Virus record (IMG/VR): IMGVR_UViG_2909303794_000006
From: a virus
Taxonomy: Duplodnaviria; Heunggongvirae; Uroviricota; Caudoviricetes
Direction: 5' to 3' (one strand)
Length of the DNA: 46,314 bases
The notes beneath the pieces are model-generated. The model searched no databases, had not been told where the DNA came from, and was given only the letters and a program-made list of their open reading frames with translations. Positions 34,437 through 36,282 of this stretch are shown one piece after another (the first letter of the stretch is position 1; each line of letters starts with the position of its first letter). The translations under genes and the position numbers were made by a program.

Positions 34437-34672
34437 GTCAGCACCATGGCTACTTTCTTTGCTAGCTTTGCTAATTCCTCGTCTTCAACACCCCACTCCA
34501 GCACAGCCAGAAGCATGGCCATCTTTGGGATAAAGCTGTCTTTCCATCGCGAAATTTGCGATTCATTAATCCCTAATGCATCAGCAACCTTTCGCTGACC
34601 ACGTACAGCAATTCGATTCAGGATGTTGCTTGTGATTGCATTCGCTTTCTTGCGAGTACTTGTAAGTTGCAT
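34394..34672 (-). CDS. cII: CII transcriptional activator
   Basis: 92 aa; HTH ...SQISRWK...LLAVLEWGV as in lambda CII; upstream TAAGGAAATACTTACAT-ATG. Confidence 0.85.
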   Translation of the reverse strand: MQLTSTRKKANAITSNILNRIAVRGQRKVADALGINESQISRWKDSFIPKMAMLLAVLEWGVEDEELAKLAKKVAMVLTKEKPQDCCNSFEA

Positions 34673-34728
34673 ATGTAAGTATTTCCTTAACAAATAAGAA
34701 GTTATACGCACCAACTGATGCGCGTTGT

Positions 34729-34775
34729 ATTCCCGCATTTCGGCGGGAATAAGGACCATGACTGTTAAAGAGCAA
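34729..34775 (-). promoter_or_regulatory. nutR (boxA plus boxB)
   Basis: minus strand TGCTCTTTAACA then hairpin CCCGC-cgaaau-GCGGG. Confidence 0.6.
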
Positions 34776-34780
34776 TTTGC

Positions 34781-34966
34781 TTATGCCGCTTTGCGATAAG
34801 CACTTTCTTGATACTTCAGGGCGCCAGCTGTAACGACTTCCAGTCGATAGGCGTCTTTCTCTGGGATGACTTCCTTCCACTGAGAGACTGCTGCATCGCT
34901 AATGCCTAACGCTTTAGCTACCGCACGCTGGGTTCCGAAGTGGTCGATAACATCTTTCTTGTACAT
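34781..34966 (-). CDS. cro: Cro repressor (P22 type)
   Basis: 61 aa, matches P22 Cro. Confidence 0.9.
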   Translation of the reverse strand: MYKKDVIDHFGTQRAVAKALGISDAAVSQWKEVIPEKDAYRLEVVTAGALKYQESAYRKAA

Positions 34967-34969
34967 AGA

Positions 34970-35046
34970 CTCGCTCCGAAATTAAAGAACACTTAAATTA
35001 TCTATCAAAGGAATCTTAAGTCAAGTTTATTTAAGATGTCTTAACT
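34970..35046. promoter_or_regulatory. OR operators with divergent pR (to cro) and pRM (to c2)
   Basis: P22-type operator half-sites (ATTTAAG...CTTAAAT-like); minus-strand TTGACT-17-ATAATT upstream of cro. Confidence 0.7.
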
Positions 35047-35697
35047 ATGAATACACAACTGATGGGTGAGCGTATTCGCGCTCGCAGAAAAGAACTTAAG
35101 ATTAGGCAGGCTGCCCTTGGCAAGATGGTTGGCGTGTCTAATGTTGCTATTTCCCAATGGGAGCGTTCTGAAACTGAGCCCAATGGCGAAAACCTATTGG
35201 CTTTAGCCAAGGCTTTACAGTGCTCCCCTGATTACTTGTTGAAAGGAGAAGATAGTCTTTCAAACATTGCCTATCACAGCAGGCATGATCCAAGAGGTTC
35301 GTATCCTCTAATTAGTTGGGTAAGCGCAGGATGTTGGATGGAAGCTGTAGAGCCATATCATAAGCGTGCAATAGATAACTGGTACGATACAACCGTAGAT
35401 TGTTCAGAAGATTCGTTTTGGCTGGACGTAAAGGGTGATTCGATGACGGCTCCAGCCGGTCTTAGCATCCCGGAAGGGATGATAATACTAGTCGATCCTG
35501 AAGTAGAACCTCGTAATGGGAAGCTGGTAGTGGCAAAGCTCGAAGGAGAAAACGAGGCAACTTTCAAGAAGTTAGTTATTGATGCTGGCAGAAGGTTTCT
35601 AAAACCACTTAACCCACAATATCCGATGATTGAGATCAACGGGAACTGCAAAATCATCGGTGTAGTTGTCGATGCAAAAATAGCAAACCTTCCATAA
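35047..35697 (+). CDS. c2: prophage repressor, P22 C2 type (HTH plus S24 autoprotease domain)
   Basis: 216 aa, near-identical to P22 C2. Confidence 0.95.
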   Translation: MNTQLMGERIRARRKELKIRQAALGKMVGVSNVAISQWERSETEPNGENLLALAKALQCSPDYLLKGEDSLSNIAYHSRHDPRGSYPLISWVSAGCWMEAVEPYHKRAIDNWYDTTVDCSEDSFWLDVKGDSMTAPAGLSIPEGMIILVDPEVEPRNGKLVVAKLEGENEATFKKLVIDAGRRFLKPLNPQYPMIEINGNCKIIGVVVDAKIANLP

Positions 35698-35720
35698 GGG
35701 GCATTCGCCCCTTTTTTTCT
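35698..35720 (+). terminator. rho-independent terminator after the repressor gene
   Basis: ggggc-attc-gcccc followed by T7. Confidence 0.75.
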
Positions 35721-35739
35721 TTCCTTTAAAAATCAAAGC

Positions 35740-35820
35740 AAAACTTAAACTTCGCAATAAAATTTAAGTTTTCTTCAAAAACACCCTTGACCAATAATTA
35801 AAGAAATCTTAAATTTAAGT
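35740..35820 (+). promoter_or_regulatory. OL operators and pL
   Basis: TTGACC-17 bp-TAAATT overlapping operator-like ATTAAAGAAATCTTAAAT. Confidence 0.65.
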
Positions 35821-35859
35821 CATCAGCAGGACGCTGGTAGCCAAACGGAACAGATTGGC

Positions 35860-35902
35860 AGGCTCTTTAACATTGATGGGATTGTCCCGCCGAAATGCGG
35901 GA
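35860..35902 (+). promoter_or_regulatory. nutL (boxA plus boxB)
   Basis: GCTCTTTAACA then CCCGC-cgaaat-GCGGG hairpin, same boxB as nutR. Confidence 0.6.
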
Positions 35903-36009
35903 ACCAAAGAGTAGTTGGCTTTGGGGTGACGTGAAGTGCAGCTGCACGACGGCAACCGGAAGATAAGCACCCGGCGCGTCACCGCCAAAGTCAATCATCG
36001 GAGGTCAAC

Positions 36010-36282
36010 ATGGCAGTAGTCATTACATATCTGGCTGACGATAACGCCAGAAATCGCCGCAGAGCACGCAGACAGGCTCAACGTGAGCAGGCAATGCAAG
36101 AACAGCGACTGGCGCGAAAAATTGCGCTAAAGCTCTCTGGTTGCGTCAGAGCAGACAAAGCAGCATCACTCGGAAGCCTTCTCTGCAAGAAGGCAGATGA
36201 ATGCAGTGGAAGTATTTGCCTGCCAAACGTAGCCATTTACGCGGCAGGCTACCGGAAATCAAAACAACTGACGGCGAGATGA
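36010..36282 (+). CDS. N: N-like transcription antiterminator (P22 gene 24 type)
   Basis: Arg-rich N-terminal motif; C-terminus ...LPNVAIYAAGYRKSKQLTAR like P22 gp24. Confidence 0.8.
   Translation: MAVVITYLADDNARNRRRARRQAQREQAMQEQRLARKIALKLSGCVRADKAASLGSLLCKKADECSGSICLPNVAIYAAGYRKSKQLTAR

Follow-up and report, generated by a model that had tools for sequence, protein, structure and literature searches.

The interval 34672-36282 of the 46,314-nt viral record IMGVR_UViG_2909303794_000006 (the window, by which we mean this whole stretch of DNA) is bounded on the left by the start codon of a cII-type gene and on the right by the stop codon of an N-type gene, and is the ordinary immunity and early-control centre of a mosaic lambda-like (lambdoid) prophage of the Escherichia coli type, a module that is already annotated. 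Very probably, it consists of an imm21-type switch of repressor, Cro and operators that has an HK620-type N-antitermination module to either side, the specificity of which would lie in the pairing of the arginine-rich arm of N with the boxB hairpins of the two nut sites. Lambda-type O, P and ren are located to the left of the interval, and sieB, ral, ea10, an interrupted cIII, kil, gam, bet and exo to its right. A first-pass annotation made from the sequence had named c2, cro, N, cII, O and P, all of which were found as described, with coordinates, among the open reading frames (ORFs) and by Pfam. Its picture of paired nut sites in a mosaic phage was also borne out, as boxA and the boxB core each occur exactly twice, one pair per early transcript.

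The nut sites and the N protein

The 16-nt boxB core CCCGCCGAAATGCGGG has exactly two copies in the 46 kb, with a chance expectation of 0.09, and no further match appears at up to two mismatches. The 11-mer boxA GCTCTTTAACA, likewise present in exactly two copies, lies 13 and 15 nt upstream of two CCCGC stems. Of the resulting pairs, one follows pL and the other follows pR and cro, each on the transcribed strand, which is the arrangement of a lambda-type N/nut system with boxA and a boxB hairpin in both early transcripts. The features are as follows.

34729-34750 (core 34732-34747), minus strand: nutR boxB hairpin AUUCCCGC-CGAAAU-GCGGGAAU, exact core match, identical in HK620 nutR
34763-34773, minus strand: nutR boxA GCUCUUUAACA, exact match, position kept in HK620, 21 and P22
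35862-35872, plus strand: nutL boxA GCUCUUUAACA, exact match, aligns with the boxA of 21 and P22
35885-35902 (core 35886-35901, loop 35891-35896, GAAA 35892-35895), plus strand: nutL boxB hairpin UCCCGC-CGAAAU-GCGGGA, exact core match
36010-36282, plus strand: N antiterminator, 90 aa, Pfam N_peptide E=5e-15, above cut-off

According to ViennaRNA, both hairpins (also written UCCCGCCGAAAUGCGGGA) fold with a stem of 6-9 bp and the 6-nt loop CGAAAU, and each corresponds to the minimum free energy (MFE) structure, at -10.5 kcal/mol (z = -2.8) for nutL and, with 9 bp, at -13.7 kcal/mol (z = -5.2) for nutR. As well, the nutL boxB falls within the span that is annotated as putative nutL in HK620. No T-run follows either hairpin and the terminator scan calls neither of them, and an Rfam scan of 34300-36400 at E values up to 10 returned noise only, with no nut or boxB family in the library. 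The boxB pair is real and not a product of chance. A small competing hairpin, GGGA-UUG-UCCC at 35878-35888, overlaps the 5' arm of the nutL boxB and is weaker than boxB in the MFE fold; where it sits, the nutR spacer differs in sequence from the nutL spacer.

The N gene, which is the first gene after pL and begins 195 nt past the predicted pL -10, possesses an intact ORF with a GGAGG ribosome-binding site. The first-pass annotation had matched N to P22, but this match did not hold, since the whole protein is 35% identical to P22 gp24 and 95.6% (86/90) identical to HK620 N, with 41% to 21 N and 13% to lambda N. Residues 1-33 (MAVVITYLADDNARNRRRARRQAQREQAMQEQR), which carry the arginine-rich motif, agree with HK620 at 32/33 positions and with 21 at 6/33, and the arm has 6/23 residues in common with P22 and 7/23 with lambda. 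The middle (residues 34-64) agrees with 21 N at 29/31 positions, and residues 65-90 form a C-terminus of the P22 gp24/933W type, with 18/25 to P22 gp24 over residues 66-90. As judged from these alignments, N is a three-part mosaic of an HK620 arm, a phage-21 middle and a P22-type C-terminus. The arm core NARNRRRARR aligns with the lambda, P22 and 21 arms, and the protein has the marks of an N, being small and basic, with an N-terminal arginine-rich motif, and encoded first after pL.

With an arm of the form ...LADDNARNRRRARRQAQREQAMQ... and the hairpin UCCCGC-CGAAAU-GCGGGA at both nut sites, the boxB cores being identical to those of HK620, the system belongs to the HK620-type N specificity class. 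It falls outside the P22 gene 24 class (arm GNAKTRRHERRRKLAIERDTI, GACAA pentaloop boxB), with 6/23 arm residues in common and CGAAAU loops, and outside the phage 21 class (arm GTAKSRYKARRAELIAERR, CUAACC-loop boxB), with 6/33 over residues 1-33 and a different boxB at both sites. A protein database search revealed the same arm joined to several other middles and C-termini, including lambda/21-type C-termini and Enterobacter versions, and the 21 arm joined to the C-terminus of the present N type; by these matches, the N arm behaves like a module that can be swapped. A PDB sequence search with N gave irrelevant coiled-coil-like matches only, and tblastn with the 37-aa arm alone gave no matches, probably through low-complexity filtering.

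BoxB binding, Nus dependence and terminator readthrough are expected here by homology with lambda, P22 and 21. The pL and pR transcripts would each carry a nut site, composed of boxA and boxB, and the N arm (about residues 11-33, core NARNRRRARR) would bind boxB on the nascent RNA, with the host proteins NusB/NusE binding the rrn-like boxA. The 21-like middle of N may contact NusA and the P22-like C-terminus RNA polymerase, and the polymerase would read through terminators into cII-O-P on one side and into ral...exo on the other.

Joint inheritance of the N arm and boxB

Co-inheritance was followed in 80 IMG/VR loci that were picked by N similarity alone. The exact boxB is present upstream of N in 77/80 and also on the opposite strand in 74/80, and the few loci without an exact pair have insertions or truncated flanks. 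The distance between nutL and nutR in the IMG/VR loci falls into classes of about 1154, 1696 and 1740 bp, which are taken to reflect different immunity regions between the nut sites. Compared with phage 21 and P22, boxA, the spacer, the leader, the nut flanks and the N middle all align, whereas the N arm has been replaced jointly with the boxB hairpins.

N relatives sharing one C-terminal backbone carry different arms, each with a boxB of its own. The P22-like arm NAKSRRHARRR pairs with the P22-type GCGCUGACAAAGCGC, the arm MNNKQRKKLQR with GAGACUGAUUCGGUCUC, the arm MNRNQRRMAAFNARK with CCUGUGAAUACACAGG, and the arm DNARNRRRA(K/R)R with the CGAAAU loop. On this N backbone, two arm/boxB pairs besides that of the HK620 type are MNNKQRKKLQRAVEHRAMK with GAGACUGAUUCGGUCUC and MNRNQRRMAAFNARKASEAIEQ with CCUGUGAAUACACAGG (IMG/VR loci L193, L198-L200, L203, L204, L217 and L219-L222), and no description was found for either.

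The stems covary as well. Across 16 distinct hairpins, 89.8% of the cells are paired and 25 cells have changed on both sides, the exchanges including G-C to A-U and C-G to U-A; 0/500 shuffles reach the observed values, and slid registers are far lower. Because the search pattern fixed the loop in part of this 16-hairpin set, the stem result is the only unbiased one. The anatomy of the sites, their conservation and the co-variation of arm and boxB are direct observations, and the arm/boxB pair would be a specificity unit, distinct from those of lambda, P22 and 21, which moves together between immunity regions.

A GNRA reading of the six-base loop

The 6-nt boxB loop had been described by the first-pass annotation as unlike those of lambda and P22. 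Both of these are indeed 5-nt loops in the sequences read, but the annotated phage 21 boxB hairpins also fold with a 6-base loop, CUAACC. Among relatives, in which the nut hairpins were picked by MFE, four loop variants all occur with the same N arm class (loci are given by L numbers), and several phages carry two different loops at their nut sites.

C-GAAA-U: nutL in 103/104 N-selected loci with a called nutL hairpin
C-GCAA-U: nutR of L241, L242, L304, L306 and L525
A-GAGA-U: nutL of L242, L272, L304 and L306
A-GGAA-U: nutL of L236 (same contig as L525)

The nutR loop counts are lower bounds, because false boxA-like matches and stems with a C·C mismatch hamper detection. In all variants the G and the final A are constant. 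Between them, A, C or G fills the second position and A or G the third, and the flanking pair is C·U or Watson-Crick A-U; GAAA, GCAA, GAGA and GGAA are all G-N-R-A, with variation at N and R alone. Because the loop variants found with the same arm follow the GNRA pattern, the CGAAAU loop is best read as a GAAA (GNRA) tetraloop, which would rest on a C-G pair through an intervening C·U mismatch.

In lambda, the boxB loop is a pentaloop of the form GNRNA and, with one of its bases extruded, takes up a GNRA fold (Legault et al. 1998, cited in PMC12027372), and the HK620 type would be this lambda theme minus the extra base. The P22 nutR boxB (L003, about 1440-1470) reads ACCGC-C-GACAA-C-GCGGU, a GACAA pentaloop with a C·C mismatch as its closing pair; its stem is almost that of the HK620-type boxB, which hints that the two types may be related.

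A second arm class, MNAKQRCKLRRLERR... (...RRKNRR... in L417), also goes with nut hairpins that have GNRA tetraloops (IMG/VR loci L239, L249, L252, L257, L264, L273, L294, L295, L305 and L417). In L417 both loops are Watson-Crick closed, with C-GAAA-G at nutL and U-GCAA-A at nutR, and the nine other loci carry C-GAGA-G at nutL and C-GCAA-U at nutR. True-tetraloop boxB sites may be widespread. It is a real if tentative possibility that the HK620-type pair, together with at least one further arm class (MNAKQRCKLRR...), constitutes a natural N/boxB class with a true GNRA tetraloop, of the form N-[GNRA]-U on a C-G pair, lacking the extruded base of the lambda and P22 pentaloops. No paper describing a natural GNRA-tetraloop N/boxB class was found in the literature searched.

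Alternative explanations

The hairpins are short, G+C-rich inverted repeats, and could for that reason be chance repeats or intrinsic terminators unrelated to N. This is effectively refuted by the two exact 16-mers where 0.09 are expected, by the lack of a T-run and of any terminator call, by the boxA found 13-15 nt ahead of both hairpins, and by the fact that the hairpins travel with the N arm over hundreds of loci. It would also be very surprising if N had P22 (gp24) specificity and the hairpins were divergent P22-type boxB. The last 25 residues of N, the P22/21-like immunity genes and the similar stem of the P22 nutR could all be cited for such a reading, but the arm shares as few as 6 of 23 residues with that of P22, the P22 loops are GACAA pentaloops as opposed to CGAAAU at both sites of the window, and those N relatives that do have the P22-like arm NAKSRRHARRR carry GCGCUGACAAAGCGC.

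The arm/boxB pair might also work as proposed with its loop read as a true hexaloop, for instance like that of phage 21 boxB, and not as GNRA on C·U. The thermodynamic fold gives a 6-nt loop, the two terminal loop bases, C and U, show strong conservation, and the 6-nt loop of 21 boxB, from the phage that the N middle resembles, also begins with C. However, the 21 loop CUAACC is unrelated in sequence, the natural variants with the same arm (GAAA, GCAA, GAGA and GGAA) reproduce the GNRA pattern exactly, and the change of position 1 from C to A makes a Watson-Crick A-U pair, and we regard the hexaloop as rather unlikely. Still less probable is that the prophage is defective and the module a remnant in decay, with N-dependent antitermination lost. 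Two insertion sequences (ISs) speak for decay, namely an IS3-family element that interrupts cIII (38019-39328) and an IS21/IS100-family element in the nin region; however, the N ORF with its GGAGG ribosome-binding site is intact, and so are both nut sites, pL, pR, the operators, c2 and cro, which are 99% identical to IS-free E. coli copies.

Several points weigh against an imm21 switch served by a working HK620-type N/boxB pair with a GNRA loop. Because of the IS insertions in cIII and the nin region, the prophage may be defective and its module idle. The GNRA fold rests on sequence patterns, and ViennaRNA reports a plain hexaloop. The loop variants came partly from pattern scans that fixed most loop positions, with positions 1 and 6 sampled incompletely; scans for a position 6 other than U or a position 1 other than C yielded mostly unrelated sequence among the matches listed, and support no inference on invariance of the 3' U. 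Finally, the literature searched, which covered few subscription journals, yielded no experiment on binding or antitermination by the HK620-type N/boxB pair.

The immunity region

Between the two nut sites, the window possesses the following switch elements.

34781-34966, minus strand: cro (P22/21 type), Pfam P22_Cro E=8.7e-28, 59/61 to 21 and 58/61 to P22
34981-34998, 35004-35021 and 35029-35046: operators OR1-OR3, 18-bp P22-type operator pattern
35024-35019 (-35) and 35002-34997 (-10), minus strand: pR, promoter scan 10/12
35047-35697, plus strand: c2/cI repressor of imm21 type (LexA-like helix-turn-helix and S24 peptidase), Pfam HTH_3 and Peptidase_S24
35696-35713, plus strand: intrinsic terminator following the c2/cI gene, with a 7-bp stem and then a T-run in the terminator scan, kept in 21 and P22
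35762-35779 (OL2) and 35797-35814 (OL1), plus strand: operators, by operator pattern and alignment to 21 and P22
35787-35792 (-35, TTGACC) and 35810-35815 (-10, TAAATT), plus strand: pL, promoter scan

The immunity had initially been labelled P22-type. The operators do match P22, and 21 as well, but the label is imprecise, the nearest relative being coliphage 21, with 213/216 identical residues between c2 and the full-length phage 21 cI ORF as compared with 201/216 for P22 c2. OR1 and OR3 are identical to those of phage 21, OR2 is one base off, and OL1-2 are near-identical. A repressor, a Cro and 18-bp operators of the form ANTNAAG-N4-CTTNANT at both OR and OL, the components of an imm21/P22 immC region, are all recognisable. 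Because c2, Cro and the operators are nearest to phage 21, the immunity is assigned to imm21, a predicted member of the P22 immC family.

The phage 21 record OL657228 (L001 1796-2446) annotates cI from an internal Met, giving 190 aa. The full frame has 216 aa and begins 78 nt upstream of the annotated Met with MNTQLMGERIRARRKELKIRQAALGK; over the first 26 residues it agrees fully with the window c2, and P22 c2 differs at residue 16 alone.

Mosaic organization, neighboring genes and insertion sequences

Local blastn against lambda, P22, 21 and HK620/HK630 gave the following map (nucleotide identity).

32405-34384: ren-P-O, 98.6% to lambda and to 21 alike
34352-34773: cII and nutR, 92% to HK620, 82% to P22, no lambda match
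34751-36201: cro to the middle of N, 86% to 21
35815-36278: nutL and N, 97.6% to HK620
36220-37274: N 3' end and sieB, 86% to P22
36901-38021: ral and ea10, 97.6% to lambda
39329-42347: part of cIII to exo and beyond, 97.7% to lambda

The genes and leader structure adjoining the switch are listed below.

32762-33463, minus strand: P
33460-34359, minus strand: O
34394-34672, minus strand: cII-type lysogeny activator (P22 c1/HK620 type), the first gene past nutR, Pfam Phage_CII E=2.4e-44
35915-35994, plus strand: long N-leader hairpin past boxB and ahead of the N ribosome-binding site, in the MFE as well as the centroid fold, z=-2.9
36299-36880, minus strand: sieB superinfection exclusion gene (P22 type), the right boundary of the N module, Pfam SieB E=2.5e-22, 82% to P22 SieB

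A lambda match had been claimed for cII, O and P on one side and for ral, gam, bet and exo on the other. The second claim holds (97.6-98.6% nucleotide identity), and so does the first for O-P, at 97.6-98.6%, with O identical to lambda at 298/299 residues. It fails for cII, which is 89% identical to P22 c1 and HK620 cII, 45% to lambda cII and 21% to 21 cII, and which these identities place in the P22-c1/HK620 type and not the lambda type. NCBIfam has no model for N or cII. The architecture of P22 immunity within lambda modules is classical, because phage 21 already joins imm21 to lambda-type O/P and to ral-cIII-kil-gam-bet-exo.

The outer stem of the N-leader hairpin, GGCUUUGG/CCAAAGYC, is kept in relatives that have a different interior and even an inserted small ORF (L090). 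The consensus fold over five relatives is blurred by insertions and supports the outer stem alone. The hairpin is reminiscent of the structure in the leader of lambda N that is sensitive to RNase III.

The two IS elements were delimited as follows.

about 29950-31890: IS21-family element in the nin region, istA 30042-31064 and istB 31061-31843
38019-39328 (1310 bp): IS3-family element within cIII, orfA/orfB 38073-39286, ends TGAACCGCCCCGG...CCGGGGCGGTTCA, 3-bp duplication TAT

Lambda homology resumes on either side of the IS3-family element at lambda positions 33360-33365, and the element looks like IS629. RefSeq labels matching copies of the IS21-family element as IS100 family, and a shortened ninB-like ORF (31887-32129, minus strand) adjoins it. 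No complete E. coli genome in the collection covers at least 80% of 29500-39500, and the combination of the two ISs is not represented there; the IS-free equivalent arrangement is present in complete E. coli genomes, e.g., SCU-301, at 99.2-99.5% identity.

Distribution and relation to known phages

The nutL-N segment was detected in 525/5426 complete E. coli genomes. It is 97.7-99.2% identical in HK620, HK630, HK140, CUS-3, N7, HF4s, ECP1, JEP4, mEpX2 and some Stx phages, and mEp213 is 99.5% identical over the part downstream of boxB. The HK620 GenBank record (AF335538, 2001) annotates nutL and nutR as putative N-utilisation sites at these positions, and the Hendrix-lab HK and mEp records annotate boxA. 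The N/boxB pair belongs to this common, already annotated HK620 class. The first-pass annotation would have given up its view of the pair as unusual had databases shown a common and described specificity; as far as annotation goes, the records of HK620 and of many other phages largely do so. In the epsilon34 paper, N arms define predicted specificities and no more.

HK620, along with HK630, HK140, CUS-3, N7, JEP4, ECP1, mEpX2 and mEp213, is the closest match for the antitermination module, with N at 86/90, both boxB identical, the same boxA, and nutL and N 97.6-98.5% identical in nucleotides to the window. It differs in its 434/L-like cI (38% to the window c2), its Cro and operators, its replication genes and its P22-like virion. 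Phage 21 (OL657228) has the same overall architecture and shares the repressor, Cro, operators and lambda-type O/P (O at 298/299), the genes ral-ea10-cIII-kil-gam-bet-exo, the N middle, and boxA with the nut flanks; it differs in the N arm, in its CUAACC boxB loops, in an unrelated cII (21%), in a lambda-like N C-terminus where that of the window is P22-like, and in having no sieB at the equivalent place.

P22 resembles the window in c2, Cro, the operators, c1/cII, sieB and the C-terminus of N, and differs in the gp24 arm, the GACAA pentaloop boxB, the replication genes 18/12 and the recombination genes erf and abc. The lambda N-boxB system has in common with that of the window an arm of the arginine-rich helix type with the pattern A-x-x-R-R-R-x-R-R (7/23), a loop built around G-N-R-A, an upstream boxA, and N as the first pL gene. 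In contrast to lambda, loops of the HK620 type have no fifth (extruded) base and would be seated on C·U or A-U instead of U-A; N lacks a Trp where lambda has W18 and is otherwise unrelated to lambda N (13% overall).

Implications

As a common, annotated lambdoid module in phages for which mosaicism is textbook behaviour, the region has small discovery value. The analysis corrects the labels to imm21, P22-c1/HK620-type cII and HK620-type N, and provides a clean natural data set in which the N arm is exchanged jointly with the two boxB hairpins, as one specificity cassette. This cassette behaviour and the reading of the loop as a GNRA tetraloop are small additions over what is known. The pair may also serve as a simple peptide-RNA pair for N/boxB tethering tools and for studies of arginine-rich-motif recognition.

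For the phages themselves, the third widespread N specificity of E. coli appears to use a plain GNRA tetraloop. In lambda, loop positions that do not contact N were reportedly implicated in NusA-dependent complex formation by Chattopadhyay and co-workers in 1995. If the GNRA class is real and this role in lambda holds, phages with such boxB sites might assemble the antitermination complex somewhat differently.

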